Positions 4,475 to 58,345 of a DNA stretch of 64,000 nucleotides are shown one piece after another. The notes under the pieces were generated by a model. The model saw only the letters and a program-made list of their open reading frames with translations. It was not told the origin of the DNA and did no database searches. The DNA is from Sneathiellales bacterium (GTDB lineage: Bacteria; Pseudomonadota; Alphaproteobacteria; JANQFL01). Numbering within the stretch: position 1 is the stretch's first letter; the number at the start of each line of letters is the position of its first letter. The stretch spans positions 13,704 through 77,703 of the forward strand of contig JANQFL010000087.1 in the NCBI GenBank assembly GCA_028277845.1, in the 5' to 3' direction. Made by a program: the position numbers and the translations under genes.

Positions 4475-5350
4475 CTAGTCGTCCAGTTCATAGCCGACGG
4501 CACGGATCTCGGCCGCGAGTTCTTGTTCGATCAGCCGGCGTTGGTGCGCGTTTAAAGTCTGTTTCCAGCGATACAGCGGCGATTCACTCACCGTGGTCAT
4601 ATTGTCGTAAGACGAATTGGCGGCGATAGGTTTCCCCAACCGAGACGGTTGCAGAACGCAGGGATCGAAATCGATGCCGATGAAGTCGCACAGGCTGCGC
4701 ATGGTCTTTTCGGTATCTTGTACCAAATCCTCGTAACGCAGGCCGTAGGCGTTCGGCTCGGGAGAGATCCAGAACCGGTTGGCCACATTGCGCCACAGGC
4801 CGCAGAAATCAACGAGTTCATTGTCATCGAACGGCCGGTTGCGGGTCTTTTCGCGCAGTTTGGTGTGGCTGGCAAACGTGGCGCGCGGATCGCGGATCGA
4901 CACCACATACTTGGCCGGGCCGAAGATCTTCTCGACATAGGGAGTCGGCCGCTTGCAGATATTGGCGATATGATTGACCGTCACACCGCGCCGGGGATGG
5001 CCGCAGAACGACGGGAAATAGATCTCCTGAAATAAATCATAGAACTCTTGCAAATTGCGTACCGGTCCAACCCGGCGGCCCACTTTCTCGGTCAACTGTC
5101 CATATGCGCCTTCGCCGTGGATCATTGTAATCATGTCCTCGAGGCGCTGGTGAAAACCGGCCTCGCGCAGTTTTAGGCTTCGCGGCAGATAACGGTAGAG
5201 AGCGAAATAGGGCTGCTTGATTTCGTTTTTGTTGCAGGTATTCCAGTATTCGAACGGGAAGACGTTGCATGCGGGATGACCGTCCAGCAGATTGTTGGTC
5301 AACGTGCCGCCGGAGCGGGACATGGACACGATGGAGACGTTGGTGTTCAC
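4475..5350 (-). CDS. sulfotransferase (PAPS-dependent type)
   Basis: N-terminal 5'-PSB-like motif SMSRSGGT and 3'-PB-like SIRDPRA; 291 aa. Confidence 0.7.
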   Translation of the reverse strand: MNTNVSIVSMSRSGGTLTNNLLDGHPACNVFPFEYWNTCNKNEIKQPYFALYRYLPRSLKLREAGFHQRLEDMITMIHGEGAYGQLTEKVGRRVGPVRNLQEFYDLFQEIYFPSFCGHPRRGVTVNHIANICKRPTPYVEKIFGPAKYVVSIRDPRATFASHTKLREKTRNRPFDDNELVDFCGLWRNVANRFWISPEPNAYGLRYEDLVQDTEKTMRSLCDFIGIDFDPCVLQPSRLGKPIAANSSYDNMTTVSESPLYRWKQTLNAHQRRLIEQELAAEIRAVGYELDD

Positions 5351-6820: not shown

Positions 6821-8950
6821 CTAGACGAATTCGTTGAGGCCGGTCAGGCCGCGGTCGCCGCTGTGCAGGTCCTGGCCGTCGGGCGGCGGCACCAGGTGGC
6901 GGGCCTCGCCGGCATATTCGGGAATGCGGTAGAGGCGGCGAACGTAGATCTTCGACAGGATACGGCCGATGCCGATGACCGAATCGCCGTAGATTTCGAG
7001 AAAGTCGCGGGCGGTTTTCTTCTGTTCGTCGGTCAGATCGAATGAGATATCCGCCGGTTCGGCGAAGCGATAGTCGGCCACGTCGCGCGGCTGCAGGTCA
7101 TCGCTGAAGCGGATGACATCGAATTTGAATGCGCCGCTGGTCGAGGCGTCCAGATTATCGAACAAATGGCTCGCCCGCAGCCTGCCGAACTCGATCAGCT
7201 CGCGGCCCAATTCGATCGCCGCGGCGTCGACGCCCTTGTCGGTGAAATAATCGGTCAGCGTCTTGGTCGCGACCTCGGCCACCTCGTCGACCAAACGGAT
7301 CAGGCCGAGGGTCTTGTATTTGAAGATCAGGTTGGCGCCCAATTCGCCGTCGATATAGCGTTTGACCGTGTCGCGCTGGCGCACGAAGTCTTCCAGATCC
7401 TCGCGTTCGCCCCAAAGCTCCGCCTTGGTTTCGGCGAGGAAATCGGCGATCAGTTGATCGAAGCGGTCATTGCCGCGGAACGCCCAGATCCTTTCGATCC
7501 ATTCGTATTTCGAAAGGCTGAGCAGCTTGATCAGCCGCAGCACCTCCTTGTAGACGGCGTCGTTGTAAAACAGGTTGACGACCAGGTGCATGTGGCGGGC
7601 GCTGAGATATTCGTCGAAAGTGATGGCGTCGTTGCCGACGCAGATTTCCTCTACCTCAGCGGCGTTGATTGCCTCGCCGAGTACGTCGAAATAGCCGTAG
7701 CAGCGCGGCAGGACGCGATACCGATTGACCATCTTCCACTTGTCGACGCTTTCGCGCGTCGCCAGGTCGGTACCCGGCAGCAGCATCAGTTGAAACAGCG
7801 CCACGGTGTTGAAGTCGGCCTCGACGATGGTCCGTATGGTTTTCAGGTGCGCCTGCAGGCTGTCTCCCGGCAGACCGAGGATGATCTCGGAATAGCTGTT
7901 GGCGCCGATTTCGCTCGCCGCCAGGGCCAGGTCGAGAATTTCCTGCTCGTCGATGTTGTTGCGTTCGATGTTTTCCAGAACGTCCTTGTCGAGGCTCTGC
8001 ACCGATCCTGAAATGCGCAGCGAACCGCTGATGATGTTGGCGGCCTCAAGCACCCGGTGTTTTTGGTTCTTGCCGGTGGCGACGTTGATGTATTCGGGAA
8101 AACCGTACGTCTTCTGCACTTCGGCGATGGCGCGGCAGGTGTCGAGATCCTCCTTGTACATGCCGAAATTGGAGTCGGCGATGAACATGTCGGAGCGGGC
8201 CCGGCCGTTGCGGCGCAGTTCGGCCATGCGTGCGCCGATCAGGTTCATCTCGTCGCGCACCCGGTCGGTCTTGCCCTTGGCAACCTTGGAATAGTACTTG
8301 GTGCCCTCGACACAGAAGGTGCAGCGGAATGGACAGCCCCGGTTGGTCTGGATGATCGGCAGCATGACACCGTCGAAAAACTCGTCCATCAGCCCCTGAA
8401 GATAGGGTGACGGGATATCGGACAGATCGAGGCGCGGGGTGGTTTCCTGCGGTCCGTCGAAGCCGCCGTCCGCCATCAGGCGATGCACCGACGGCAAGCC
8501 GTGCGGTACGCCGCCCGGATCGAAGGCGCACGCCTCCAGCCGCTCGACGAGGTCGGCGAAGGCCGCCTCGCCCTCCTTGACGATGAAGAAATCGAACATG
8601 GGGTGGGCGCGGACGAATTCTTCCTGCTCGGCCGGATTTGTCGGATAGTTGGGGCCGCCGAACACGGTCACCACGCCAGGCAGCCTGCGCTTGATGACTG
8701 CCGCGAACTGGCTGCTCAGGTCCCGGTTCCAGATATAGTTGGAAAACCCGATCACCGCCGGTGCCGGTTCGTTGTCCAGGGCCGTGGCCAGCTTTTCCGG
8801 AAATTTGAACAGCCGGAATTGCGGCGGGTTAGGCCGCCTGCTGGCGGTATAACTGGCGATGCAGCCGATCGCCGCCGGCATGACGTCGGACGCAACGGTC
8901 TGCTGTGTATAGGTCAGGTCACATAGCCAGATCGACGGGGCTTCGGTCAA
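6821..8950 (-). CDS. B12-binding domain radical SAM protein
   Basis: CxxxCxxC motif NRGCPFRCTFC at 8312..8335. Start set at in-frame TTG 8950 preceded by GGAG 8 nt upstream; the ORF-track ATG at 9061 would overlap sqdB by 79 nt. A GTG at 9010 is an alternative. Confidence 0.7.
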   Translation of the reverse strand: MTEAPSIWLCDLTYTQQTVASDVMPAAIGCIASYTASRRPNPPQFRLFKFPEKLATALDNEPAPAVIGFSNYIWNRDLSSQFAAVIKRRLPGVVTVFGGPNYPTNPAEQEEFVRAHPMFDFFIVKEGEAAFADLVERLEACAFDPGGVPHGLPSVHRLMADGGFDGPQETTPRLDLSDIPSPYLQGLMDEFFDGVMLPIIQTNRGCPFRCTFCVEGTKYYSKVAKGKTDRVRDEMNLIGARMAELRRNGRARSDMFIADSNFGMYKEDLDTCRAIAEVQKTYGFPEYINVATGKNQKHRVLEAANIISGSLRISGSVQSLDKDVLENIERNNIDEQEILDLALAASEIGANSYSEIILGLPGDSLQAHLKTIRTIVEADFNTVALFQLMLLPGTDLATRESVDKWKMVNRYRVLPRCYGYFDVLGEAINAAEVEEICVGNDAITFDEYLSARHMHLVVNLFYNDAVYKEVLRLIKLLSLSKYEWIERIWAFRGNDRFDQLIADFLAETKAELWGEREDLEDFVRQRDTVKRYIDGELGANLIFKYKTLGLIRLVDEVAEVATKTLTDYFTDKGVDAAAIELGRELIEFGRLRASHLFDNLDASTSGAFKFDVIRFSDDLQPRDVADYRFAEPADISFDLTDEQKKTARDFLEIYGDSVIGIGRILSKIYVRRLYRIPEYAGEARHLVPPPDGQDLHSGDRGLTGLNEFV

Positions 8951-8982
8951 GTCATCTGCTCCACGCTGCAAGGCCGATCGGT

Positions 8983-10149
8983 CTATCGATCCGCTTTCTC
9001 GGACGACCACTGGATCCGTGGGTTCATCACGTTCCGGTCCACGAAGTCTACATGCCGGCATACCGTTTGGTACATGGCGTCCAACACGGCTTCCGTTAGA
9101 AGGTTAGGGCGCAATCCGAGATCGACAAGTTTCGAGTGCTTTGCGTTGTAGTAATGATCCTCCAATTCCACCCGGGGATTCTCCAGGTGGTCGATCTGTG
9201 TATCCTGCCCGTTGCGCTTCGCGGCAGCGACCACCATTTCGGCCAGTTGCAGGACCGAGAACTGTTCGGTGAACTGGTTGAAGACACGGAAATCGCCGCG
9301 ATCGGCCGGATTGTCGACCGCCAGGGCGACGCACTGGATGGTGTCCTTGATATTGAGGAAACCGCGCGTCTGGCCACCCTTGCCGTAAACCGTCAGGGGG
9401 CATCCGATCGCCGCCTGGACCAGAAATCGGTTCAGAACCGTGCCGAACACATCGTCGTAATGGAACGACGTCTCCAGGTCGGGGTGCAGCACGGTCTGAT
9501 CCGTCTCGATACCGTAAACGACTCCCTGGTTGAGGTCGGTCGCCCGCATGTCCCAAATCCGGCAGGTGAATTCGATATTGGCCGAATCGTGCACCTTGGA
9601 CAGGTGGTAAAAACTGCCGGGACGCTTGGGGAACAGGACCCGGTCCTTGCGGCCGTTGTGTTCCAGCTCCAGCCAGCCTTCCTCGATATCGATGTTCGGC
9701 GTGCCGTACTCGCCCATGGTGCCCAGCTTCACCAAATGTGCGTCCGGGCAATGAGCCCGCATGGCGAACAGGACGTTCATCGTGCCTTCGATATTGTTTG
9801 TCTGGGTGTAGACCGCGGTCGTTCTGTCCTGCATCGAATAGGGGGCGGAGGGCTGCTCGCCGTAGTGCACGATGGCGTCGGGCTTGAATTCCCGGATCAC
9901 CTTGTAGACGAAGCGATGGTTACACAGATCCCCGACCATCAGCGCGATGTCGTTACCGCTGATTTCCTTCCAGCGCCGGACGCGCCGGTGCAACGGTGGA
10001 ATGGCCGCCAGCGGCTCGATGCCTTCCTCCAACTCCCATTGCCGTTTGGCGAAATTGTCGACGATGGCAACCTCGTCGCCGCGGGCGGAGAAATGCATGG
10101 CCGTCGGCCAGCCCAGATAACCATCACCACCAAGAACCAATACACGCAT
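8983..10149 (-). CDS. sqdB: UDP-sulfoquinovose synthase (SqdB/SQD1 family)
   Basis: Long blocks match SQD1 as I recall it: GGDGYLGWPTAMH, VKLGTMGEYGTPNIDIEEG, FYHLSKVHDS, RATDLNQGVVYG, LTVYGKGGQTRGFL, FRVFNQFTEQFSV, HYYNAKH. Confidence 0.85.
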   Translation of the reverse strand: MRVLVLGGDGYLGWPTAMHFSARGDEVAIVDNFAKRQWELEEGIEPLAAIPPLHRRVRRWKEISGNDIALMVGDLCNHRFVYKVIREFKPDAIVHYGEQPSAPYSMQDRTTAVYTQTNNIEGTMNVLFAMRAHCPDAHLVKLGTMGEYGTPNIDIEEGWLELEHNGRKDRVLFPKRPGSFYHLSKVHDSANIEFTCRIWDMRATDLNQGVVYGIETDQTVLHPDLETSFHYDDVFGTVLNRFLVQAAIGCPLTVYGKGGQTRGFLNIKDTIQCVALAVDNPADRGDFRVFNQFTEQFSVLQLAEMVVAAAKRNGQDTQIDHLENPRVELEDHYYNAKHSKLVDLGLRPNLLTEAVLDAMYQTVCRHVDFVDRNVMNPRIQWSSEKADR

Positions 10150-10197: not shown

Positions 10198-10932
10198 CTA
10201 AAGTCGGGATCCGTCACTCATGTGAGGGAGTTCGATGGCGCCGCTCGACAGCAGCGCCTCCGCAATCGGGAGGTCTTCGGGACCGTCTAGGTCGAGGCCA
10301 TAGCGCGAGTCAATGCCAATTCCCGCGCAGGGCTCCGCATAAAACCCCGATCCATCGCGCAAGGCGTCCGTCCGCGCCGCGATCAGATTGCCGAACACCA
10401 TCAGTTTCGGCTTGTTCTGTTTCAGCCGTGCGCTGCCGCGTTCCTCGGCAAACAGAAAGCCGACCCGGCCGTCGGCATCCAGCTGCCTCTGGTTCCAGGC
10501 GTGGCTGTTGTGTGCCACGGCGATGACGTTGTGGGCCGATCGTGCCGCGCCGTCGCGTTCGAACACGCCCAGCAGTTCCTCGACATGGACGGGCAGAAGA
10601 AACGGCGATGTCGGTTGAATCAGCACGATGACGTCGGGCAGCGTTTCGCCCTGGCCGGCCGCGCGTTCGAGATATTCCCGCACTACGTCGTCGACCTTGA
10701 CCGCGTCGCCGCCCAGGTCGTCGGGCCGCCGATCCACGTCCACCCCGAGCGCTATTGCCCGTTGGGCGATGCGGTCGCTGTCCGTCGAGCAGACGATGCG
10801 GTCGAGGCGCCCGGAGGCGATCGCCGCCGTGATGCCGTAATCGAGCAGCGGCCGGCCGGCGACGGACACCAGGTTTTTCAACGGAATGCTTTTCGATCCG
10901 CCCCGCGCCGGGACGAAACCCCAGGCGTTCAT
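10198..10932 (-). CDS. acylneuraminate cytidylyltransferase family (CMP-nonulosonate synthetase, NeuA/LegF/PseF-like)
   Basis: N-terminal PARGGSKSIPLKN motif typical of CMP-NeuAc/CMP-Kdo-type cytidylyltransferases; start overlaps upstream stop (ATGA). Confidence 0.75.
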   Translation of the reverse strand: MNAWGFVPARGGSKSIPLKNLVSVAGRPLLDYGITAAIASGRLDRIVCSTDSDRIAQRAIALGVDVDRRPDDLGGDAVKVDDVVREYLERAAGQGETLPDVIVLIQPTSPFLLPVHVEELLGVFERDGAARSAHNVIAVAHNSHAWNQRQLDADGRVGFLFAEERGSARLKQNKPKLMVFGNLIAARTDALRDGSGFYAEPCAGIGIDSRYGLDLDGPEDLPIAEALLSSGAIELPHMSDGSRL

Positions 10933-11888
10933 CGGCCGGACTCCCTCGCCAGTGCGCGCAACGCCTTGTCGATGACGAAGGCTTCGGTCTCGCTCCAGGC
11001 GTCGTGGGTCGAACCGCCGATATGCGGCGTCAGGATCAGATTGTCGTGTTCCCGGGCATAGACGGCGACGCGGCTGTCACCGAACGACTGGGCAAAATCG
11101 GTGCGGTATTCGCCGTCGATGGTATCGAGGGCGGCGGCCTGGAGATGGCCCGATTCCAGCAGGTCGAGCAAGGCGTCCAGGTCCAGGAGTTCGCCGCGGG
11201 CCGTGTTGACCACCACGGCGCCCCGGGGCAGCGCCTCCAGCACGGCGCGCGAAACGAGGTTGCGGGTTCCGTCGTTGGCCGGTGCGTGCAGGGACAGGAC
11301 ATCGGAGCCGGCGGCCAGGGCTTCGATTGTGTCCACGCCGCCGTCGACGTAGGGATCGTAGTAGGCCGTCTTCATACCGATGGCTTCGGCGATGCGGGCG
11401 ACCTTGCGGCCCAGCCGGCCATAGCCGACAAGGCCCAGGCGCATACGGGACAACATGCGCGGCGCACCCCACGGCCGCCGGTTCCAGGCACCACTGGCCG
11501 CCGCCGCGTGAGCCGCCGGAATCCGCCGCCAGGCCGCCATCATCAGGCCGATGGCGTGTTCCGCCGTCGGTGTGATGCCGTCGAGAAACTCGGGCTCGTC
11601 GTGCAGGGCGCACACCGCGATATGTCTGCTCGCGGCGGCCTGGGCATCGATATGGGGAATGCCCGTGGTGTTGGACACGACCGCGCGCAGGCGTGGGCAG
11701 CGATCCATCTTGTCCGCGTCCACGGCAAATCCCAGGGGCGCGAACAGCACTTCGGTTTCGGCCAACATGTCCGCCGTGTCGTCGCGCGGGTCATCCAACG
11801 CCGTCAGGTCGAAACAGTCCCGAAGCCGGGCCAGGTTCTCGGGCTGGTAGCTCATGATGCGGTAATAGAGGGCGCGGGGACGGGGCAT
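10929..11888 (-). CDS. D-isomer-specific 2-hydroxyacid dehydrogenase family
   Basis: NAD-binding GLVGYGRLGRKVA and C-terminal catalytic region (LILTPHIGGST). Start set at Met 58 of the ORF (11888) to avoid overlap with the upstream gene; Met 69 (11855) is an alternative. Confidence 0.7.
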   Translation of the reverse strand: MPRPRALYYRIMSYQPENLARLRDCFDLTALDDPRDDTADMLAETEVLFAPLGFAVDADKMDRCPRLRAVVSNTTGIPHIDAQAAASRHIAVCALHDEPEFLDGITPTAEHAIGLMMAAWRRIPAAHAAAASGAWNRRPWGAPRMLSRMRLGLVGYGRLGRKVARIAEAIGMKTAYYDPYVDGGVDTIEALAAGSDVLSLHAPANDGTRNLVSRAVLEALPRGAVVVNTARGELLDLDALLDLLESGHLQAAALDTIDGEYRTDFAQSFGDSRVAVYAREHDNLILTPHIGGSTHDAWSETEAFVIDKALRALARESGR

Positions 11889-15950: not shown

Positions 15951-17654
15951 TCAATAATCGGCGATGAACTTGTAGCTGTCCGCACGGTCCATCTTGTAGG
16001 AATGGTAGTGCATCCGGTCGGAATGGAACCAGCCGTGCAGCAGATCGGTTTCCTGTTGCAGCGGGGCGGGATTGTCGCTCACGACCTTCCGGTAATCCTC
16101 ATACAGGGCGAAGATCGCCGAATCGTCGCCGGTGACGAAACTGTCCTGCCAATCGGGATGGCAGAAGAACCAACCGGCAAAGACCTTGGCGCTCTCCCGT
16201 GTCTTGGCCAGATCCAGGTCGTTCCACCAGGGCCGTTTGAGGCAATCGATGTATTCTTCGCGGGATCGGCACCAGGTGCCGACGCCGCAATCGTGGAACC
16301 AACCGCGGTCCGCCATCAACGACGGCTTGCCGAGATACGCGTATTCGATGGCGGCGGTGCCGGTACAGGTGATGACGGCGTCGACGCAGTCCATCACCGC
16401 CCGGCCGTTCCAGCCCTGGGGCGCTATCTGGACATGGCCGGCCATGCGCTCGCCGATATAGTCGGCCAACGACGCGCCGCCGTACCACAGATCGCAGGGG
16501 TGGGGCTTGAACAGCCAGTAGACGTCGGTGTTTTGCTTGGCGATATCGACCGTCAGGGAAATCCAGTCGAGATAGTCTGTGAAGTTGTTGAGCCCGAACA
16601 CGTGCGGATAGTCGAACCAGTTGGAGGCATAGACGCCGACGATGGGCTTGTCCTCGGTCCAGCCGAAGCGCTGGCGCAATTGCTCCCGGTCGATGTGGTC
16701 GTTGGCGTTGATGTAGGCATACAAGGTGCCCAGATCCAACGTCTTGCCGTTGAGGCGGTTGTCCAGGTACGAGCCGCCGACCTCGGACAGGGACCCCAGC
16801 TGTTGCGGGCTCAGGTTTCGGGCGTGTTCGACCGGCAGGCGGTCGACCCAATCGAAGATGGCTTCGCGCGAGCGGATCTTCCAGTATCGCGGCACGCCGT
16901 AGCAACCGTACAGCACCACCGCCGGAATACCGAGCGATAGGGCGACATAAGCCAGCGCGCCATAACGGAACTCGATGACATGGCTGAGGATCAGCAGGGA
17001 CGTGCGTTCGGCCGACAATATGCGTTCGGCGGCGTCGATGCTCAGCAAGGCTTCGGCGACGTGGTCCTCCAGTTTCGGGTCCGCCATGTCGATGGTGCCG
17101 AGGCGGCGACGCTTGAGAATGCCGTCATAGACCCAGCCGCCGGGAAAGCCGTGCGGCAGGTCCCATTCCATCATGTCTTCCGGACGATCGGTCATATCCA
17201 GAAGCTGTCGTGCCCGGCGGCGGGCGTCCTTGAGGCCGGAACGGAAGTGTTTTTCAAACCGCACCGTGTCATTGATGCCGAGACGGTTCATGGTCTCCTT
17301 GGCCTCGCGGGTGCGCCACTTGCCGACGATGCCGACCTCGTTGGCGGTCGGCAGCCCGAGGGCCTTGCGCAACAAGGTCAGGCGCCACCAGTAGTTCGGA
17401 TTGAACCACATGCCGTCGATCAGCACCCGGTCCGGGAACGTCTTGTCCGTCGACTCGGCGATCTGCCGGAACAGATTCTCCGCCGGAATTCGCTGGCGTT
17501 GAATCTCCTGCCAGCGCGCCCGTTCGGACGGTGTGATTCGGCGGCGCAGCATTTGGCCCTGGGCGTAAAGGTGCTTCGCCGCGGTTAACATGCGCGAAGA
17601 GGCCTTCGACAAGGGCGACGGACGGGTATTTGATTCTGAGGTGGAAACGGTCAT
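15951..17654 (-). CDS. capsule-polysaccharide-biosynthesis-like protein (KpsC/KpsS/LpsZ-like fold with KPHP motif); candidate glycosyltransferase
   Basis: 567 aa with WLFKPHP motif. Family assignment tentative; start could also be Met 22 (17591). Confidence 0.45.
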   Translation of the reverse strand: MTVSTSESNTRPSPLSKASSRMLTAAKHLYAQGQMLRRRITPSERARWQEIQRQRIPAENLFRQIAESTDKTFPDRVLIDGMWFNPNYWWRLTLLRKALGLPTANEVGIVGKWRTREAKETMNRLGINDTVRFEKHFRSGLKDARRRARQLLDMTDRPEDMMEWDLPHGFPGGWVYDGILKRRRLGTIDMADPKLEDHVAEALLSIDAAERILSAERTSLLILSHVIEFRYGALAYVALSLGIPAVVLYGCYGVPRYWKIRSREAIFDWVDRLPVEHARNLSPQQLGSLSEVGGSYLDNRLNGKTLDLGTLYAYINANDHIDREQLRQRFGWTEDKPIVGVYASNWFDYPHVFGLNNFTDYLDWISLTVDIAKQNTDVYWLFKPHPCDLWYGGASLADYIGERMAGHVQIAPQGWNGRAVMDCVDAVITCTGTAAIEYAYLGKPSLMADRGWFHDCGVGTWCRSREEYIDCLKRPWWNDLDLAKTRESAKVFAGWFFCHPDWQDSFVTGDDSAIFALYEDYRKVVSDNPAPLQQETDLLHGWFHSDRMHYHSYKMDRADSYKFIADY

Positions 17655-17687
17655 AGCTGCGTTAAGTATCGGCGCCGGTCGGGGCGG

Positions 17688-18617
17688 TTAGACTTCATAT
17701 CCCAACGACGTCAGATCGTGGTCGAACATGGTGGCCAGCTTGCGGTTCGATTCGCGCCATTTCTCCCGCGCCCAATCGGGGACATGCCGGTCCACTTGCG
17801 CCAACGTCGTATCGCGCTTGTTGGGAAAACGCGATGACAATAGGCGCGCCGCCTGGCGGGCCCGCAGATGAGCCGAAAACGGCAATATGCCGGCCTCGTT
17901 GTGCTGGGTCTGGCAGAACCGGTTGGCAAACCGGTACAAACCACGCCACGGTTCGGAGAACGACACATTGACCGGTTCCTGACGCGGTTCGAAGTCCGGG
18001 TCGACACCGATGAATTCAAAGATGTCGCGGAAAAACCGGGTCCGATTGGCCTTGAGGTCCTCGAAGAACAGCACCTTGAAGTTTTCGCGGCCGAACTTCT
18101 CCTGGGCATAGGCGACGTAGCGGTCGTAGCACAGCTTCTCGAAGATATTGAGATGGCCGGTGCGCTCGAAATTACCACGCGGAATGTTCATGCTGATGGC
18201 CGGCGACGCGTGCTCGGACAGGAAGCCCTTCACATCGAGTACGCCGCCTTCCATGACATAGGCGTTCCAGGCCGAGCGCACGTAGGATTTCTGTTCGCGC
18301 AGGACGATGAACGCCTTGACGCCCGGCATAAGGTCGCTCAGCAGGTCGATGATCATGCGCGCACCGGCGCCGTCGAAGGCATGACCCGACATCGCTTCGG
18401 CGCTGAACACGGATTTCTTTGCCGCCGGCTTGGCATTCGAGAACGGCATGGCCCGCAGCTTGTCGAGGAACGCCGCACGGTCGAATTCAAAGGAATAGTC
18501 CCGCAATTCGAAGAACAGCCCCTTGTGATCGCGCCAGGAAAAATTGATCTCCGGATGCGCGTCCATGGCCACCATCTGCAGGTACGACGATCCCGTCTTG
18601 GGCAGGCCAAGATGCAA
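17688..18617 (-). CDS. sulfotransferase (second copy, different family from 4475..5350)
   Basis: PAPS-binding-like LHLGLPKTGSSYLQ motif. The ORF-track N-terminus overlaps the upstream gene by ~200 nt and is Arg/Ser/Pro-rich, so a non-ATG start near 18617-18656 is inferred (TTG at 18617 chosen; CTG at 18632 or 18656 possible). Confidence 0.55.
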   Translation of the reverse strand: MHLGLPKTGSSYLQMVAMDAHPEINFSWRDHKGLFFELRDYSFEFDRAAFLDKLRAMPFSNAKPAAKKSVFSAEAMSGHAFDGAGARMIIDLLSDLMPGVKAFIVLREQKSYVRSAWNAYVMEGGVLDVKGFLSEHASPAISMNIPRGNFERTGHLNIFEKLCYDRYVAYAQEKFGRENFKVLFFEDLKANRTRFFRDIFEFIGVDPDFEPRQEPVNVSFSEPWRGLYRFANRFCQTQHNEAGILPFSAHLRARQAARLLSSRFPNKRDTTLAQVDRHVPDWAREKWRESNRKLATMFDHDLTSLGYEV

Positions 18618-18657
18618 GACGTCGAACGGCAGGGCGTTATCCGATCGGCTAGGCAGG

Positions 18658-19365
18658 TTATTGGGCAACGGTGTTCTGCTCCAAGGTCGATGACTTGAGC
18701 GCGCCGATGACCTCGTGCGCGCTCGCCGTGGCCCAGGACGGGCCCAGTGTATCCATGATGCGGTGGGCGCGTTCCAGATCCTCCACGGTATCGACGGAGA
18801 CGTTTTGCTGCGACAGGTCTTCATCGAGGCAAACATTTTCAATGCGAAACGCATCGGTGTAACGGTACATGTGGCGGGTCAGGTGTTCGCGGTCTTCCGG
18901 GTCGTCGCTGGCGGCAATGGCGCGCTGCAGCGCCTGTGTCTGGATCACTTCGACGGTCATGCCGACGGGAAAGGAACGGGGAAACGCATTCGTCGCCAGG
19001 TCTGCACCGGTGTTCTGCTGCAAATCCCGCAACTGTGTCATCACATCGATCGGCACGAACGGACTGTCGCCGGTCACACGGATAAACGTCTCCAGGCCAT
19101 GTAATTGCGCACATGCCAGCGCCCGGCCGGCAACATCATCGCACGATCCACGAAACACGCCGACCTGTTCGTTATCCGCCAGTTCCGCAATGGCGTCGTC
19201 GACCGGTCGGTCCGAGGTGGCGACGAAAATCGGCAGCGCGGGGTGCAAGGCGCGCAACCGTTCGAGCACCCGGCTCAACAACGGTTTTCCGGCCAGGGCG
19301 ATGAGGGCCTTGCCCGGCAGGCGCACCGAGTCGAAGCGGGAAAAGACGAGAATTCCGGCGGTCAT
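18658..19365 (-). CDS. cytidylyltransferase, SpsF/PseF-like (CTP_transf_3 type)
   Basis: Start at internal Met (MTAGILVFSRFDSVRLPGKAL), the characteristic N-terminus of this family; the upstream 104 codons of the ORF are low-complexity. Confidence 0.7.
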   Translation of the reverse strand: MTAGILVFSRFDSVRLPGKALIALAGKPLLSRVLERLRALHPALPIFVATSDRPVDDAIAELADNEQVGVFRGSCDDVAGRALACAQLHGLETFIRVTGDSPFVPIDVMTQLRDLQQNTGADLATNAFPRSFPVGMTVEVIQTQALQRAIAASDDPEDREHLTRHMYRYTDAFRIENVCLDEDLSQQNVSVDTVEDLERAHRIMDTLGPSWATASAHEVIGALKSSTLEQNTVAQ

Positions 19366-19369
19366 GGCG

Positions 19370-20437
19370 TCATGCGTTCGACAGTTGGTCCCACGTTTCC
19401 TTGTACCACTGGCAGTACCGCAGATAGCCGTCCTCGAGTGACCAATTCGGCTCGAAGCCCAGTTCGGTTTGGGCGCGTTCCACCGACAATGTGCCGCGGA
19501 TCGGCTTGTCCTTGGCACGCGGGCGTTCCTCCAGGATGACGTTGGGGACGACCTGCTGCACGACCGATGCAAGTTCGGCGATGGTGCGCGCGCTGCCGCG
19601 CGTGATGTTGAAGGTCTGCGACGCCGGTTTGCCGGGATGGAATGCCAAGGCTCGGATGATTCCCTGTACCAGGTCATCGATATAGGTGAAGTCCAGACGG
19701 CCGTCCCCGCCGCCTTCCAGCAGCAATGGCTTGCCGGTCATGGCGTTCTCGATGAAGATTTGGCTGACCCTGCGGCTGACGCAACGTTCGCCATACAGGG
19801 CGCTGGGGCGGATGATCGACGTGCCGATACCGTGTTGGTGGTTGTAGGTGCGGACCAGCCGTTCAGCCATATATTTGGTGTTGGCGTAGATGCCGCGCGG
19901 CCGCGGACGGGTGCTTTCGTTGACGCTGTCGCCCTCGAAGTCGCCATACACCGTGCTCGAACTCATCAGCATGACAAGATCGACGGGCGCCGCTTCCATG
20001 CGCACCAGTTCGAGCACGTTGCGCAGGGTGATCAGCTGCAAATCGAAACACAGGCCGGGGTCCTTGCGGGCCTGAACGGCGCTGGCGATCGCCGACAGAT
20101 GCACCACCTTGGTCGGCTGGTAGTCATGGAACCAACGCATCAGTTCGACCGGGTCGCGGGCGTCGGCGTTGCACAGTTGGATACCCGCGTCCTTCATCAT
20201 GGCGAACCGCGTCAGCAGGAAGTGCCGGTAGATCCGGCTTTCCAGCGGATCGGTCCGGGCTCCGTAAACGCTGTCGACCAGGCTATTGACCATGAGATTG
20301 TCGAGAACCATGACATCTATGCCCAATCGCCGCAGCTCAAGCGCCAGGTGGTGGCCGATGAAGCCTGCACCGCCGACCAACATGACACGGTCGTTTTCCA
20401 GTTTCTTGGGTACGGCGGCGTAGGAGAGGTCAGTCAT
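19370..20437 (-). CDS. NAD-dependent epimerase/dehydratase (extended SDR); first gene of the glycan island
   Basis: Rossmann motif LVGGAGFIGHHL and catalytic YANTK; AAAGGA-like RBS about 10 nt upstream of the ATG. Confidence 0.8.
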   Translation of the reverse strand: MTDLSYAAVPKKLENDRVMLVGGAGFIGHHLALELRRLGIDVMVLDNLMVNSLVDSVYGARTDPLESRIYRHFLLTRFAMMKDAGIQLCNADARDPVELMRWFHDYQPTKVVHLSAIASAVQARKDPGLCFDLQLITLRNVLELVRMEAAPVDLVMLMSSSTVYGDFEGDSVNESTRPRPRGIYANTKYMAERLVRTYNHQHGIGTSIIRPSALYGERCVSRRVSQIFIENAMTGKPLLLEGGGDGRLDFTYIDDLVQGIIRALAFHPGKPASQTFNITRGSARTIAELASVVQQVVPNVILEERPRAKDKPIRGTLSVERAQTELGFEPNWSLEDGYLRYCQWYKETWDQLSNA

Positions 20438-20467
20438 ACGTTACATCCTTTCAACTTGTCGCGATGC

Positions 20468-20742
20468 TCTGGAGCAATTCCTCTTTAGATGGAATCCATT
20501 CTGTTTCTCGAGCGGCCTGCCCATCCACCAGGAAGACGGGGCCGCGCGATGCCGGGCATCGCGCAAGCCGTCTAACGCCGTGGGGGGCGGCCGCTCGGAA
20601 ACCCGGAGGGACGGGCGTATTGGTGCCAAATCCGGCGGCTGCCGTCTCGGCCATACCCCCGGTATGGCCGTCACCGCCAGCCTTGGCCTTGGCACCAATA
20701 CGCCCGTCAGAATGTTTCCATCTAAAGAGGAATTGCTCTAGG
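20468..20742. repeat. large nested imperfect palindrome in the divergent intergenic region
   Basis: Outer arms 20468-20503 and 20708-20742 (core GAGCAATTCCTCTTTAGATGGAA / TTCCATCTAAAGAGGAATTGCTC, perfect 23 bp). Inner arms GACGGGCGTATTGGTGCCAA 20610-20629 / reverse complement 20689-20708. Central hairpin GGCCATACC-CCC-GGTATGGCC 20649-20669. Left arm carries ~105 bp extra with its own palindrome CGCGATGCCGGGCATCGCG. Confidence 0.75.
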
Positions 20743-20777
20743 TTTCGCCGAGCGATCGTAACGTCCGGAGTCCCGCA

Positions 20778-21197
20778 ATGCCTGTCATGACGGCGGAACA
20801 GATTCACAGCTTCCTGGAAGAACATTTTCCGCAGATTTCCCATCTCGATATGCGCATCGAGGATGTCCGGAAAAACGGCATCACGGTCCGGATTCCCTAT
20901 CACGAACGGCACCTGCGTCCCGGCGGCACCATATCCGGGCCGACCATGATGGCGTTGGCCGACGCCGGCACCTATCTGGCCATATTGGCCCAGCTCGGTC
21001 CGGTCGCCGAGGCCGTCACCACCAATCTGAACATCAATTTCCTCAGGAAACCCGGGCAAAACGACATCGTCGCCCAATGCAATATCCTGAAACTGGGCAA
21101 GCGGCTGGCGGTCGGCGAGGTCACCATTTTCAGCGCCGGCGAAGACGACCCCGTCGCCCACGCCACCATGACCTATTCGATCCCGCCCCGTGAATAG
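20778..21197 (+). CDS. PaaI-family (hotdog fold) thioesterase
   Basis: 139 aa; GGAG 8 nt upstream of the ATG; hotdog-thioesterase-like core (HGGTISGPTMMALADAG). Confidence 0.65.
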   Translation: MPVMTAEQIHSFLEEHFPQISHLDMRIEDVRKNGITVRIPYHERHLRPGGTISGPTMMALADAGTYLAILAQLGPVAEAVTTNLNINFLRKPGQNDIVAQCNILKLGKRLAVGEVTIFSAGEDDPVAHATMTYSIPPRE

Positions 21198-21268
21198 GGT
21201 AATATAATACCGCAATTTCAAGTTATTGAATTTGCAGCGAAATTCTTGCCGATTCTCAAACAAATGTG

Positions 21269-21297
21269 TTGACTTGCCCCTGCACCTCGACTAGAAA
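21269..21297 (+). promoter_or_regulatory. putative sigma70-type promoter for rplM-rpsI
   Basis: TTGACT - 17 nt - TAGAAA located ~70 nt upstream of the rplM ATG in an AT-rich intergenic stretch. Confidence 0.3.
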
Positions 21298-21367
21298 TCG
21301 CGCCCTGAATTCGGCTCGGCGCAGTGCCGGGCACCACGCCTGAATACAGGTTTTTTAAGGACCGACA

Positions 21368-21832
21368 ATGAAAACCTATTCCGCCAAACCCAGCGAGGTC
21401 GAGCGCAAGTGGTTGCTGATCGACGCCGAAGACGTCGTCCTCGGCCGTTTGGCCGTATACGTCGCCGACCGGCTGCGCGGCAAGCACAAGCCGATGTACA
21501 CCCCGCATATCGACTGCGGCGACAACGTCATCGTCATCAACGCCGAGAAGGTCAAGCTGACGGGCCGCAAGCGCACCGACAAGACCTACTACTGGCACAC
21601 CGGCTATCCGGGCGGCATCAAGAGCCGCACCGCCGACAAGATCCTGGACGGCGCCCATCCCGAGCGGGTGGTCGAAGCGGCCGTCAAGCGCATGCTGCCG
21701 GGCGGACCCTTGTCGCGTCAGCAGATGCGCAAGCTGAAGATCTATGCCGGCGCCGAGCACAAACACGAAGCCCAGTCGCCGGAAGTGGTCGACATCGCGG
21801 CATTGAACCCCAAGAACAAGAGGAGCGCGTAA
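21368..21832 (+). CDS. rplM: 50S ribosomal protein L13
   Basis: Conserved L13 sequence ([29 protein letters not shown]...). Confidence 0.95.
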
Positions 21833-21835
21833 TCC

Positions 21836-22336
21836 ATGAGCGAAGAAACGCGCACGTTGGATGACCTGAAAGACCTGGGCGACGCCGTCACCCCGAGTGA
21901 CGAGGCCGCGGCCGCACCGGCTGCGCCGGCGGAACCCCAGAAGGATGAATTCGGCCGGTCCTACGCCACGGGCAAGCGGAAAAACGCCGTGGCCCGCGTT
22001 TGGATCAAGCCCGGCGTCGGCCGTTTCACGGTCAACGGCAAGGACGGCGATGTCTATTTCGCCCGCCCGGTGCTGCGCATGCTGCTGCGCCAGCCGTTCA
22101 ACGCGGTCAACCGCAACGACCAGTTCGACGTGGTCTGCACGGTCAAGGGCGGCGGTCTCTCCGGCCAGGCCGGCGCCGTCCGCCACGGTATTTCCAAGGC
22201 ATTGACCCTGTTCGAGCCGGAACTGCGCCCGGCCCTGAAGCAGGGCGGCTTCCTGACCCGTGACTCCCGTGTAGTCGAGCGTAAGAAGTACGGCCGCCCC
22301 AAGGCGCGCCGCCGCTTCCAGTTCTCGAAACGCTAA
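21836..22336 (+). CDS. rpsI: 30S ribosomal protein S9
   Basis: Conserved S9 C-terminus ([19 protein letters not shown]...[25 protein letters not shown]). Confidence 0.95.
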
Positions 22337-22362
22337 CCCGACTTTACGGTCACACGAAAAAA

Positions 22363-22389
22363 GGGTTGCGTTTCGCAGCCCTTTTTTTT
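22363..22389 (+). terminator. rho-independent terminator after rpsI
   Basis: GGGTTGCG-TTT-CGCAGCCC hairpin followed by an 8-T tract. Confidence 0.6.
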
Positions 22390-22432
22390 CGCCCCGGGGC
22401 TGCGGCAACCCGTTAGGATCAGAGGCAAAACG

Positions 22433-23494
22433 GTGACGGTTATGACCAACGCAAACTCGAAGATCAAAATCGGCGTTCTCGGCGCCAGCGGCTATACGGG
22501 CGCCGATCTCGTGCGGCTCCTGCTGCTGCACCCCAACGCGGAGATCTCGCTGCTGACGGCCGACCGCCGGGCAGGGGAATCTTATGCGGCGGTCTATCCC
22601 CATCTGGCCGGGCGCGGACTGCCTGATCTGGTGGCCATCCAGGACGCCGACTGGTCGGGCGTCGATGCCGTGTTTTGCGGATTGCCCCACGGGACCACCC
22701 AGGAACTGATCGCCGCGCTGCCCGACCAGGTCAAGGTGATCGACCTGTCCGCCGATTTCCGTTTGCGTAACGCCGACACCTACGCCGAATGGTACGGTCA
22801 TGAACACCGGGCGCCGCATCTGCAGGGCGACGCCGTCTACGGCCTGACCGAACATGCCCGGGAGGCCGTCTCCGCCGCCCGCCTGGTGGCCTGCCCCGGC
22901 TGTTACCCGACCGCCGCCCTGATGGCGTTGCTGCCCCTGGTCGGCGGCGGCGTCATTGACCCCGCCGACATCGTCGTCGACGCCAAGTCGGGTGTGACCG
23001 GCGCGGGCCGGGGACTGAAGGAGGCCAATCTGTTCTGCGAGGTCGCCGAAGGCATTCATCCTTACGGAATTGCGTCGCACCGGCACGCGCCCGAAATCGA
23101 GCAGGAACTGAGCTTGGCCGCCGGCAAGGACATCCTGATCAACTTCACGCCGCATCTCATGCCCATGAACCGGGGCGAGTTGCTGACCTGCTATGTGCGC
23201 ATGACCGAGGGCCATACCGCCGACGACCTGCGCGCCACGCTGGCCGAACGGTACGACGACGAATACTTCGTCACGGTGGTCGAACCCGGCGTGGTGCCGG
23301 CGACCCGCCACATACGCGGCTCCAATCACTGCCTGATCGGTGTCTTCGCCGACCGGATACCGGGCCGGGCGATCGTCGTGTCGACGCTGGACAATCTGGT
23401 CAAGGGATCGAGCGGCCAGGCCATCCAGAACATGAACCTGATGTTCGGCCTGCCCGAAACCACGGCGTTGGAACAGGCACCACTGTTTCCGTAA
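22433..23494 (+). CDS. argC: N-acetyl-gamma-glutamyl-phosphate reductase
   Basis: NAD(P)-binding IGVLGASGYTGADLVRLL and the family active-site region; the L13/S9/argC arrangement is common in alphaproteobacteria. Confidence 0.9.
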   Translation: MTVMTNANSKIKIGVLGASGYTGADLVRLLLLHPNAEISLLTADRRAGESYAAVYPHLAGRGLPDLVAIQDADWSGVDAVFCGLPHGTTQELIAALPDQVKVIDLSADFRLRNADTYAEWYGHEHRAPHLQGDAVYGLTEHAREAVSAARLVACPGCYPTAALMALLPLVGGGVIDPADIVVDAKSGVTGAGRGLKEANLFCEVAEGIHPYGIASHRHAPEIEQELSLAAGKDILINFTPHLMPMNRGELLTCYVRMTEGHTADDLRATLAERYDDEYFVTVVEPGVVPATRHIRGSNHCLIGVFADRIPGRAIVVSTLDNLVKGSSGQAIQNMNLMFGLPETTALEQAPLFP

Positions 23495-23517
23495 ATCCAT
23501 AACCGAGTCACAGCCCC

Positions 23518-24063: not shown

Positions 24064-25869
24064 TCAGTCCATCGCCTGGATCTTGACGTAGGACCCCGGC
24101 GCATCCTCGATCACGTCGAGCTTGCCGTCGCCCGGCACCCGGGCGGGCACCTTCTTGCCCGATTTCTTGGCCAGCCATGCATCCCAATCCTCCCACCAGG
24201 AGCCGGGATGTTCCTCGGCGTCGGCGAACCAGTCGTCGGGCGTCTTGTAGGTTTTTTTCTTTTCGTTGATCCAGTGCTGATATTTCTTCGCCGCCGGCGG
24301 ATTGATCACACCGGCGATGTGGCCGGAGCCGGACAGCACGAACCGCACCGGTCCGCTGTAGAGCCCGGTGGCCTTGAAGGCCGACGGCCAGGGCGCGATG
24401 TGGTCTTCCTTGCTGGCCAGAATGTAGGTCGGCGTCTTGATCCGGCGCAGATCGATTTTCTCGCCGCCCAGTTCCAGGCCATCCGGCGCCGACAACAGGT
24501 TCTTCTGGTACATGTTGCGCAGGTAGTAGCTGTGCATGGCCGCCGGCATGCGGGTGGCGTCCTGGTTCCAGTAGAGCAGATCGAAGGGGAAGGGGTCCTT
24601 GCCCAGCAGGTAGTTGTTTACCACGAACGACCAGATCAGGTCGTTGGCCCGCAGCATGTTGAAGGTCGTCGCCATGGCGCTGCCCTCCAAATAGCCGCTT
24701 TTTTCCATGCGGTTTTCGAGCGATTTGATCTGTTCCTCGTCGACGAAGACCGTCAGTTCGCCGGCCTCGGAGAAATCCACCTGGGCGGCGAAGTAGGTTA
24801 CCGCCTTGATACGGTCGTCGCCGATCGCCGCCATATAGGCCAGCGTCGCCGCCATCAATGTGCCGGCCAGGCAATAGCCGATGGCGGTGACGTTCTTTTC
24901 GCCGGTAGCTAACTCGATAGCATCGAGGGCGGCCAGAATGCCTTCCTGCATGTAGTCCTCGAAGGTCTTGTTGGACAGTTTCTCGTCGGGATTGACCCAG
25001 GAGATGACGAAAACGGTATAGCCGTGATCCACGGCCCATTTGATGAAGGAATTGTCCTGGCGTAGATCGAGGATGTAGAACTTGTTGATCCACGGCGGGG
25101 CGATCAGCAATGGCCGCTTGTACACCTGCTTGGTGGTCGGCGTGTATTGAATCAACTGCATGAGCTCGTTCTGATAAACCACCTTGCCCGGCGTGACGGC
25201 AACGTTCTCACCCAGCGTAAAGGCGTCCAGGTCGGTCATCTTGATGGCCAACTGCCCTTTACCCCGTTCCAGGTCGGACAGCATGTTATTCAGTCCATTG
25301 ACCAGGTTTTCGCCGTTGCTGTCGAAGGTGGAGCGCAGCACCTCGGGGTTTGTCATGACGAAATTGCTGGGCGCCATGGCGTCGACGAATTGACGGGTGT
25401 AGAACTCGACCTTCTGCTTGGACTTGCCGTCCATACCCTCCACATCGGACACCGTCGATTGGAGCCAGCGGGCGGTCAGCAGATAGGATTGCTTGATGAA
25501 GTCGAATATCTGGTTTTCGTCCCAGGCCGAATCCCGGAACCGGCGATCACCCCGTTCCGGCGACACATGGGGATCGACCTCCTGGCCGAGCATGCGTTGC
25601 GTCGTTTTTTGCCATAATTCCAAATAATCTTGCCACAACCCCATCTGCGCTTCGACCAAACGGGTCGGATCGGCCATCATTTTGGCCGTCATATCCAGGA
25701 AAGCGCCGCCGATATTCAGCGGATCGGCATCTCCCGTGGCGGAATCCTCGGTCTGGTTCTTCAGAAACTCGGTAACAAGGCGCTGGCTTTGCGAGGCAAT
25801 TTTTGCCATGTTCTTCGAGAATTCTGCCGGATCGGGGAAGTTAAGGTCGTTGCCTGGTTGATCGGCCAT
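24064..25869 (-). CDS. phaC: class I poly(3-hydroxyalkanoate) synthase
   Basis: Start at internal Met (MADQPGNDL) with AAGGA RBS; lipase box GYCLAG. The 147-codon N-terminal extension in the ORF track is rejected. Confidence 0.85.
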   Translation of the reverse strand: MADQPGNDLNFPDPAEFSKNMAKIASQSQRLVTEFLKNQTEDSATGDADPLNIGGAFLDMTAKMMADPTRLVEAQMGLWQDYLELWQKTTQRMLGQEVDPHVSPERGDRRFRDSAWDENQIFDFIKQSYLLTARWLQSTVSDVEGMDGKSKQKVEFYTRQFVDAMAPSNFVMTNPEVLRSTFDSNGENLVNGLNNMLSDLERGKGQLAIKMTDLDAFTLGENVAVTPGKVVYQNELMQLIQYTPTTKQVYKRPLLIAPPWINKFYILDLRQDNSFIKWAVDHGYTVFVISWVNPDEKLSNKTFEDYMQEGILAALDAIELATGEKNVTAIGYCLAGTLMAATLAYMAAIGDDRIKAVTYFAAQVDFSEAGELTVFVDEEQIKSLENRMEKSGYLEGSAMATTFNMLRANDLIWSFVVNNYLLGKDPFPFDLLYWNQDATRMPAAMHSYYLRNMYQKNLLSAPDGLELGGEKIDLRRIKTPTYILASKEDHIAPWPSAFKATGLYSGPVRFVLSGSGHIAGVINPPAAKKYQHWINEKKKTYKTPDDWFADAEEHPGSWWEDWDAWLAKKSGKKVPARVPGDGKLDVIEDAPGSYVKIQAMD

Positions 25870-26086
25870 TACCCTATCCTTTATTCTTGTGCGCGCCGTA
25901 AGGTTTGGAATTAACGGACAAATTTGAATTTTTATTGAATTTACGGGTGACCACGCGCATTCGCAAGCTTCGGTCTGCACTAGGTTGTCGATGCGGATGA
26001 TGGCATGACGGTGTTTCATGACCGCAAAAGAACGACACGATACCCAGATTGCGGTCTGGTTCGGTCGTGGTTTATGGGGGTGACGT

Positions 26087-27373
26087 ATGTACCATGAGTC
26101 TGACTCTCTTCGCCGAGGGGTCCGCCGGGCGCGCCTTGGTCGGGTTATCGGTCCCATCCTGGCGGTCGGGTTGCTGTCCGGCTGCAGCTCCGTGCCGGAC
26201 TGGGCGAACCCGGTCGACTGGTACGACACGGTCACATCCGATTCGACCCCCCGGCCGGTACAACTGGAAACCGAAGAGGAAAAGGCGGAAGCCGACAAGC
26301 CGTTCCCCAATCTTGGCGCCGTACCGGACCGTCCGGAAGGCGGCAGCGCCGAACAGCGCCGTCAAGTTGCCGAGGGCCTGGTCGCGGACCGGGACAAGGC
26401 GAAATACACGGATGAAACGTTGCGCGCCGAAGGCACCGAGAGCGCACCGTCGGTCACGCCGCCAGCCGCCGCAACACCGCCACAGGCCGCGGCCCCCGTC
26501 CAGCAACCGGTTCAGCCACCGGTTCAGGCACCTGTGGCCGCCACGCCACCGGCCCCGCAACAGCCCACAACGTCGTTCGGTTCAAGTCCGACCCCGATGA
26601 TTGCCGCCATGACCCGCCAGCGCCAGGCCGGCGGGCAGGGCCAGGTGCCGTCGCTTTCGCAAGGAACGGATCAGTCCCGTTATGTGCCGCCGCCGCCGGC
26701 ATCCAGCACCACGCCGCCGTCGACCGTCCCGACGCCGGCCGCTATTCCCAACCAGGCGCCGGCGCTTAATCCGGTGACCCGCCCGTCTTACCCGAATTAT
26801 CCGCAAGCCCAGGCGTCATCGGGCAATATCCTGGGCGATACCTTCAGTTCCCGACTGCGCGATTCGGCCTCAACCGTGACGACGGCGCCGCCGAACGAAC
26901 AGTTCATCAGCTCAACTCAGCCCTATACCCCGACGGAACAGTCTGTCGCCTTTTCGTCGGCTCCGGCGCAGGCCGGATCTCCCGTCGCTTTGCCGTCGCT
27001 GTCGCCTCTGGTCGGCGGATCCCGTCAAATCGCCGTTGTCAAGTTTACCGACGGCTCCCACAACCTGACCGGCAAGGGCCGCTCGCAGCTCAAAAGCGTG
27101 GTCGCGGAATACAAAAAACGCCGCGGTATCATCCGTGTTGTCGGTCATGCCTCCAGCCGGACGCGGGATCTGAGCATTTCCCAGCACAAATTGGTCAATT
27201 TCGATATTTCCCTGAAACGGGCGCAATCGGTGGCCGGCCGGTTGACCCGCATGGGTGTTCGGTCGGAAGACGTACTGATCGAAGCCCGAGGCGACAGCGA
27301 ACCGCTCTATTTCGAAGCCATGCCCCGGGGCGAAGCCGAAAACAGACGGGTTGAAATCTTTCTCGAATATTAG
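26087..27373 (+). CDS. OmpA-family lipoprotein with proline-rich linker
   Basis: Lipobox LLSGC; long Pro/Ala/Gln-rich low-complexity region; C-terminal OmpA/MotB-like domain (RVVGHASSRT...NRRVEI). Confidence 0.75.
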   Translation: MYHESDSLRRGVRRARLGRVIGPILAVGLLSGCSSVPDWANPVDWYDTVTSDSTPRPVQLETEEEKAEADKPFPNLGAVPDRPEGGSAEQRRQVAEGLVADRDKAKYTDETLRAEGTESAPSVTPPAAATPPQAAAPVQQPVQPPVQAPVAATPPAPQQPTTSFGSSPTPMIAAMTRQRQAGGQGQVPSLSQGTDQSRYVPPPPASSTTPPSTVPTPAAIPNQAPALNPVTRPSYPNYPQAQASSGNILGDTFSSRLRDSASTVTTAPPNEQFISSTQPYTPTEQSVAFSSAPAQAGSPVALPSLSPLVGGSRQIAVVKFTDGSHNLTGKGRSQLKSVVAEYKKRRGIIRVVGHASSRTRDLSISQHKLVNFDISLKRAQSVAGRLTRMGVRSEDVLIEARGDSEPLYFEAMPRGEAENRRVEIFLEY

Positions 27374-56615: not shown

Positions 56616-56859
56616 CGTAGTAACGATCCTTCCGCTTCAAGAACACGCCCAGCCCCTTGGCGAAAAACACCATGACCGCGCAGGTCACAAAGCCGTACCA
56701 GGAAAAGAACCCGAACGTTCCATCGAGCCCGAAATGCGGGTGGCCGACGAGCCAGATGTCGGCAAGGACAAACAGGGCAAGCCCCGCCAGCCCGCCACGC
56801 CAGAGCCAGCGGATCGTGTTGGGCCGGACCAGCCAATGCAGGTCTTGTTGCTTGCTCAT
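56605..56859 (-). CDS. small hypothetical membrane protein
   Basis: 84 codons from internal Met (MSKQQDLHWLVRP...), two predicted TM helices, overlapping-stop arrangement between two antiporter-like genes. Confidence 0.35.
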   Translation of the reverse strand: MSKQQDLHWLVRPNTIRWLWRGGLAGLALFVLADIWLVGHPHFGLDGTFGFFSWYGFVTCAVMVFFAKGLGVFLKRKDRYYDAD

Positions 56860-58337: not shown

Positions 58338-58345
58338 CTGGTCCG

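Follow-up and report, generated by a model that had tools for sequence, protein, structure and literature searches.

In a stretch of 64,000 nucleotides of chromosomal DNA (61% GC) from a Sneathiellales bacterium (contig JANQFL010000087.1; the whole stretch is referred to below as the window), a minus-strand gene at 17688-18668 encodes a protein with the sulfotransferase fold. The gene comprises 326 codons and a stop, and its most likely start is TTG 18668. Judged from its sequence, the gene is intact, its product would be a divergent sugar-sulfating enzyme, and its neighborhood is a gene cluster for a sialic-acid-like surface glycan. The peptide LPKTGSSYLQ, coded at 18605-18576 of the minus strand, had led the initial annotation to propose a second sulfotransferase in the window, and this proposal is borne out by both of the motifs that bind 3'-phosphoadenosine 5'-phosphosulfate (PAPS), by the fold, and by a profile match to the structure 3RNL.

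The gene directly upstream (18658-19365, minus strand, start ATG 19365) encodes a CTP_transf_3 cytidylyltransferase (PF02348, 73 bits) and terminates in a TAA at 18660-18658. The open reading frame (ORF) of the sulfotransferase can be read without interruption from ATG 18854 to the TAA stop at 17690-17688, which gives 388 aa, and in this form it overlaps the cytidylyltransferase gene by 197 nt. An overlap of about 200 nt and a low-complexity N-terminus had been described for this ORF, and both descriptions agree with the measured overlap and with a run of about 62 N-terminal residues rich in R, S, P and W.

Family, fold and cofactor-binding motifs

An exhaustive profile search returned 5,471 relatives of the sulfotransferase at E<=1e-3, of which 1,661 reached E<=1e-10. 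A 60-member family profile matched 3RNL in the PDB over nearly the full length (E=1.8e-25), and all 42 distinct PDB sequences found at E<=0.01 are sulfotransferases or sulfotransferase domains. Among 60 sampled relatives, 45 matched PF13469 (Sulfotransfer_3) at E<=1e-3, the best with an E of 4e-15. Since these relatives match PF13469 and the profile matches 3RNL, membership in the superfamily is recovered at the profile level, and the sequence comparisons indicate that the protein is a divergent subfamily of the sulfotransferase superfamily that stands outside the curated Pfam families as such. An AlphaFold model based on nine sequences (predicted local distance difference test (pLDDT) 76, predicted template modelling score 0.77) has the alpha/beta fold of the sulfotransferases.

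The residues H19, G21, G95, R124, S132, and E203 are invariant in the 60 relatives and K24, S89, and E91 are nearly invariant. The invariant His19 and the 5'-phosphosulfate-binding loop (H-L-G-L-P-K-T-G-S-S-Y-L-Q) are coded at 18576-18614 of the minus strand. In the model the loop, G21-L-P-K24-T-G-S-S28, follows the strand formed by residues 17-20, and it aligns to KcGtS of 3RNL and to PKSGT of SULT2A8 and SULT2B1. The 3'-phosphate-binding motif, R124-E-Q-K-S-Y-V-R-S132 (18273-18299, minus strand), in which R124 and S132 are the invariant residues, aligns to R-N-P-x-D-x-x-x-S of 3RNL, SULT2A8, and SULT2B1, the counterpart in the two SULT enzymes being R-N-P-R-D-V-x-V-S. The catalytic base is a His in the cytosolic SULTs and a Glu in NST and 3-OST. 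Two residues of the protein are candidates for this role, the invariant H19 and the nearly invariant E91 (FSAE; 18396-18398, minus strand), which follows model strand 85-89 and has a Glu of 3RNL as its counterpart in the alignment. Both residues are family-specific. Since NST and 3-OST use a Glu, Glu91 would be a plausible catalytic base by analogy.

A search with sulfotransferase hidden Markov models (HMMs) had been suggested in the initial annotation as a check, and its result favours a sulfotransferase at the level of the relatives, yet the protein taken singly falls below the Pfam gathering thresholds. Its scores are 19.4 bits for PF00685 (Sulfotransfer_1; threshold 22 bits) and 20.2 bits for PF13469 (threshold 27 bits), and these values count against the assignment together with the lack of any NCBIfam match for the 17688-18668 protein and the moderate confidence of the model (pLDDT 76). 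A protein that has the sulfotransferase fold but uses another nucleotide-activated donor, or that serves as a non-catalytic binding module, is considered very unlikely.

The initiation codon

Every in-frame start-type codon of the sulfotransferase ORF was enumerated, which gave ATG, TTG, and CTG candidates. Those deep inside the upstream gene are ATG 18854, 18836, and 18824 and TTG 18842, and the remaining ones are TTG 18668, CTG 18656, CTG 18632, and TTG 18617, with TTG 18668 being the sole canonical in-frame start between ATG 18824 and TTG 18617. TTG 18668 (18666-18668, minus strand) is a codon of the ATG/GTG/TTG type located 11 nt within the upstream gene, and it is preceded by a Shine-Dalgarno (SD)-like GGAG (18682-18679, minus strand) at a spacing of 10 nt. 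Other junctions in the operon have GGAG or GGAGG with spacers of 8-10 nt and overlaps of 1-4 nt (ATG 10932, GTG 13050, ATG 2342). Initiation at TTG 18668 yields precisely the sequence of a public protein (P0001; 326 aa; MPNNLPSRSDN...), and the first 10 residues of this product are predicted to be disordered (pLDDT below 50). These sequence features suggest that translation most likely begins at TTG 18668, so that 11 nt are shared with the cytidylyltransferase gene.

The initial annotation had placed the start at a TTG or CTG between 18617 and 18656 and had named an alignment with homologues as a means of locating the conserved N-terminus. In that alignment the conservation of the family starts at L13-P14-F15-D16 (LPFDV, about 18632-18629) and not upstream of 18656, and among the canonical starts TTG 18668 alone retains the conserved N-terminus. 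A non-ATG start near the end of the cytidylyltransferase gene has therefore been upheld, but the proposed range misses the best candidate, which lies 12 nt outside it, and the limits of the feature are corrected from 17688-18656 to 17688-18668. The only canonical codon within the range, TTG 18617, is excluded by the alignment. The codon is in frame and clear of the upstream gene, which has already ended, and initiation there would yield MHLGLPKTGSS..., but it would delete P14-F15-D16-V17, which is invariant in the four closest homologues and belongs to the region of the first beta-strand; the longer stretch L-P-F-D-V-L-H is invariant or almost so in these four. In 59 relatives the leader ahead of the invariant His is 3-26 residues long (median 7); TTG 18668 gives 18 residues, CTG 18632 gives 6, and TTG 18617 leaves a single residue ahead of His19. 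TTG 18617 also has no SD-like motif, and we regard a start at this codon as exceedingly unlikely.

That the ATG-initiated ORF does not mark the real start had also been proposed, and the codon-position GC and the homologues agree with this. The 388-aa ORF (18854-17688) is uninterrupted and is the sole version of the gene that begins with ATG, and if it were translated the protein would carry a 62-residue extension encoded across the cytidylyltransferase gene. In this frame, the GC contents at the three codon positions of 18669-18854 (minus strand) are 0.40/0.76/0.63, as compared to 0.59/0.40/0.79 in the body of the sulfotransferase gene and 0.67/0.44/0.75 for the cytidylyltransferase in its own frame. 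The pattern is the signature of the other frame, so the segment codes only for the upstream gene in that frame and is a spurious 5' extension of the ORF. An extension of this type is absent from the eight close homologues (44-64% identity) and from the 59 family members, and the family HMM aligns only from P-F-D-V onward, that is, from residue 76 of the 388-aa version. Visual inspection of the 22 nt that precede ATG 18854, a codon outside the formal SD scan, showed no evident SD-like motif of at least 4 bases. A start at ATG 18854 was rejected on these grounds, and translation of the full 388-aa ORF has virtually no credence left.

Initiation at TTG 18668 would probably be coupled to termination of the cytidylyltransferase frame, because the last 11 nt of that gene begin with the TTG, and the TAA at 18658-18660 (minus strand) would be the site of this coupling. 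The starts of the orthologues were compared at eight loci, which represent five distinct genes. At six of the eight loci the gene overlaps its upstream neighbor by 4 nt (ATGA), at one the overlap is 8 nt, and at one there is a GAGGAG of its own. The window gene, though without an ATG, keeps the overlapping, coupling-type arrangement that the orthologues have through their ATGA-type overlaps. A scan of 17400-21300 found no promoter- or terminator-like sites, and the RNA at the gene junction shows no excess of structure over shuffled sequences (z=+1.24); both results lend slight support. The idea that a frameshift fuses the cytidylyltransferase to the sulfotransferase was rejected as well, all of the orthologues being separate genes with their own ATG. 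In one related metagenomic cluster, L001, the sulfotransferase gene comes after the gene for an epimerase of the short-chain dehydrogenase/reductase (SDR) type and not after the cytidylyltransferase gene.

Several observations do not favor TTG 18668. The leader of 18 residues is within the range of the family but in its upper tail (median 7), and the start codon is ATG at all eight orthologue loci, the window gene alone being without one. Relatives of more than 65% identity, in which conservation of the TTG could be followed, were not found, and a family-alignment scan of 185,579 species-representative genomes returned zero confirmed relatives. The product of CTG 18632, MPFDVLH, resembles a typical N-terminus of the family.

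The CTG codons would give the same enzyme from a near-cognate start (18656 or 18632) by termination and reinitiation. Both are in frame and precede the conserved PFDV; CTG 18656 is one base past the TAA at 18660-18658, a good position for reinitiation, and CTG 18632 would give a 6-residue leader near the family median of 7 and an N-terminus like those of P0009 (MPEFDAIH) and P0004 (MNKPFDV). However, CTG is a very inefficient and rarely used start in bacteria, neither CTG has an SD match of at least 4 bases at 4-13 nt whereas TTG 18668 does, and the public protein P0001 implies a TTG start rather than a CTG. Taken together, these points make a CTG start improbable. The presence of an ATG in all eight orthologue loci and its absence from the window gene could also mean that an ancestral ATG was lost and that the gene is a relic, silent or only poorly expressed and on its way to becoming a pseudogene. 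Against this, the 326-codon frame is intact and keeps every invariant residue of the family (H19, G21, G95, R124, S132, and E203), its GC by codon position is what coding sequence typically shows, it can be started from a canonical TTG with an SD, and several further junctions of the operon likewise have non-ATG candidate starts. We therefore give the relic only a very small probability. The gene model with a TTG start at 18668, limits of 17688-18668, and an 11-nt overlap can be considered settled as far as sequence alone allows, and the 388-aa ATG ORF can be considered wrong to the same extent.

The gene cluster and the proposed role

The sulfotransferase gene belongs to a series of minus-strand genes that runs from 20437 downward. 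The order is an SDR epimerase/dehydratase, the cytidylyltransferase, the sulfotransferase, a 567-aa protein, an MsbA-like ABC transporter, NeuB, a NeuC-type 2-epimerase, a 2-hydroxyacid dehydrogenase, a second cytidylyltransferase, an SDR enzyme, a B12-binding radical-SAM enzyme, a 457-aa GT4-like protein, a Sulfotransfer_3 gene (4475-5350), an SDR enzyme, and glycosyltransferases. We compared this arrangement with four metagenomic clusters (L001, L002, L087, and L088). All five clusters have a core in common, which consists of the sulfotransferase, a protein of 540-573 aa, the ABC transporter, NeuB, NeuC, a cytidylyltransferase, and an SDR enzyme.

It is probable that the protein is a cytoplasmic, PAPS-dependent sulfotransferase of the carbohydrate type from a small, uncharacterised branch of the superfamily, translated from TTG 18668 by coupled initiation and co-transcribed in a nonulosonic-acid cluster, and that it most likely sulfates the glycan or its lipid-linked precursor before export. 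The gene would be co-transcribed with those for the SDR epimerase/dehydratase, the cytidylyltransferase, a KpsC-like GT-B transferase, the MsbA-like ABC exporter, and the NeuB/NeuC-type proteins. A surface glycan would be built around a nonulosonic or ulosonic acid, sulfated in the cytoplasm, and then exported by the ABC exporter, the sulfate most likely being added to the glycan that contains the nonulosonic acid or to its lipid-linked precursor. Two points make this proposal less secure, as the acceptor is assigned entirely from the gene neighborhood and no PAPS-synthesis genes (APS kinase, CysQ) were detected by Pfam within the 64-kb window.

A search of 5.8 billion clustered sequences found only nine proteins at 44% identity or more. 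One might propose that the window protein and about eight close relatives form a dedicated subfamily, with the signature H-x-G-x-P-K-T-[AG]-S-[ST]-Y-L-Q, whose target for sulfation would be a bacterial nonulosonic-acid (sialic-acid-like) residue or the glycan joined directly to that residue, and which would be a core part of a cluster with NeuB, NeuC, a cytidylyltransferase, a KpsC-like protein, and an MsbA-like exporter. This proposal is offered tentatively and is, on balance, doubtful. Full-text literature searches found no report of a bacterial nonulosonic-acid sulfotransferase. L087 (1-9069) and L088 (449-7250) are more distant versions of the cluster in which other modules replace the epimerase/cytidylyltransferase head. 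The head of L087 has aminotransferase, acetyltransferase, and HisH/HisF-like genes, as in the pathways for legionaminic and pseudaminic acid, and that of L088 has FkbH-like, carrier-protein, and methyltransferase genes. Because these two clusters carry different head modules, the same sulfotransferase family appears to serve chemically different nonulosonic-acid glycans.

The other sulfotransferase of the cluster (4475-5350, minus strand; PF13469, 69.4 bits) had been described as unrelated in sequence to the one at 17688-18668. The two do belong to different sequence families, but they are distant members of the same superfamily rather than unrelated proteins. They have only a 29-residue motif in common, [FY]-E-D-L...F-I-G-[VI] (BLASTP E=0.003), and the 4475-5350 protein scores 16 bits against the family profile of the 17688-18668 protein. 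As the similarity is confined to this motif and to a 16-bit profile score, the sequences indicate that the two are different families of one superfamily and not recent paralogues. Their phyletic patterns also differ: the 17688-18668 gene is found in all five clusters and is part of the core, whereas the 4475-5350 gene is accessory and is found in the window and in L001 only. Two distinct sulfation sites, as suggested in the initial annotation, would be a reasonable proposal and would fit one core and one accessory enzyme.

The downstream neighbor of the sulfotransferase gene (15951-17654, minus strand) encodes a conserved GT-B protein of 546-567 aa that resembles KpsC and is syntenic in all five clusters. 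The AlphaFold2 model of the 567-aa protein (pLDDT 94) has the GT-B architecture, and in Foldseek it reaches its top TM-scores against E. coli KpsC, with the N-terminal beta-Kdo-transferase domain of that protein. The protein itself has no Pfam or NCBIfam match, 14 of 41 relatives match Capsule_synth (PF05159) weakly, and sequence searches of the PDB with the single protein or with a 41-member profile gave nothing significant, the fold search alone being informative. On the basis of the model, the protein is a candidate for a family of transferases of cytidine monophosphate (CMP)-activated ulosonic or nonulosonic acids that is missed by the current Pfam. It has more than 100 homologues, nearly all of which are labelled 'hypothetical', and in the public protein P0159 the start is placed 21 codons downstream of ATG 17654.

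Further genes of the cluster may bear on the chemistry of the glycan. Two different CTP_transf_3 cytidylyltransferases are encoded (10198-10932 and 18658-19365, both minus strand), and the 2-hydroxyacid dehydrogenase (10929-11888) sits between NeuC and the one at 10198-10932; the combination suggests either two CMP-activated acids or an unusual nonulosonic-acid variant. The B12-binding radical-SAM enzyme (6821-9061, minus strand, about 710-746 aa) is, like the 4475-5350 sulfotransferase, found in the window and L001 only, with 48% identity between the two proteins. Its start is ambiguous among GTG 9010, TTG 8971, and TTG 8950 (GGAG at 8 nt), and the enzyme may methylate or otherwise modify the sugar. 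The 457-aa GT4-like protein (5403-6776, minus strand) has orthologues of 40-57% identity in L001, L087, and L088, and the sequence of L002 ends before that position. Its GT4 signal is below threshold, and a PDB sequence search with it gave nothing significant.

Directly upstream of the cluster is a 760-aa ORF (21218-23500, minus strand) with no Pfam match at E<=1e-3. The rest of the window has ordinary chromosomal content. The segment 39201-50012 contains genes for molybdoenzymes of the CO-dehydrogenase/xanthine-dehydrogenase type with the accessory genes CoxE, CoxG, and XdhC, and elsewhere there are an Mrp/Nuo-type antiporter block (54933-59827), PhaC (24064-26310), homoserine dehydrogenase, GlpX, and RecJ. 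The best matches to GlpX are 75% identical and come from metagenome-assembled genomes of Vineibacter, Stellaceae, and Rhodospirillaceae, which roughly places the window in a Rhodospirillales-like alphaproteobacterium.

Comparison with known systems

The closest match of known structure, 3RNL, is a structural-genomics entry for a sulfotransferase from Alicyclobacillus acidocaldarius that has 18-19% identity to the window protein. It has no known substrate, and a literature search found no paper that mentions the structure. The His-x-Gly signature ahead of the lysine is missing from 3RNL, which has vGaaK in place of the H-x-G-x-x-K of the window family. Heparan-sulfate N-sulfotransferase (NST domain, 1NST) and the 3-O-sulfotransferases 3-OST-1, 3-OST-3, and 3-OST-5 have 11-13% identity to the window protein, a likeness at the level of the fold only. 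NST and the 3-OSTs are eukaryotic Golgi enzymes that act on glycosaminoglycans.

The result is useful though largely ordinary, as it adds a new, divergent sulfotransferase subfamily to a known type of enzyme. The subfamily is small and uncharacterised, is flagged here from below the standard Pfam and NCBIfam thresholds, and accompanies clusters for nonulosonic-acid glycans in environmental bacteria, Rhodospirillales-like ones among them. The pathways of glycan sulfation in bacteria are poorly mapped, and divergent families like the one at 17688-18668 are plausible candidates for the missing enzymes. It has been reported that reference sulfotransferases fail to detect the enzymes behind widespread sulfated and sialylated exopolysaccharides (PMC10483923).

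Clusters for sulfated capsules provide the nearest comparison at the level of gene content. The cluster of Cobetia marina KMM 1449 combines sulfotransferase and PAPS genes with kpsSC and an ABC transporter (PMC11766843), and a comparable cluster has been reported for Vibrio sp. KMM 8419 (PMC11641403). The Cobetia cluster has its own cysNC, cysD, and cysQ and a KpsMTED exporter (PMC11766843), whereas the window cluster has a single fused MsbA-like ABC protein, NeuB/NeuC genes, and no PAPS genes within the 64 kb. As in the Cobetia cluster and, reportedly, the Vibrio cluster, the sulfotransferase gene of the window is located within a cluster for an ABC-transporter-dependent surface polysaccharide of the KpsS/KpsC type, which is presumably sulfated in the cytoplasm and only then exported.

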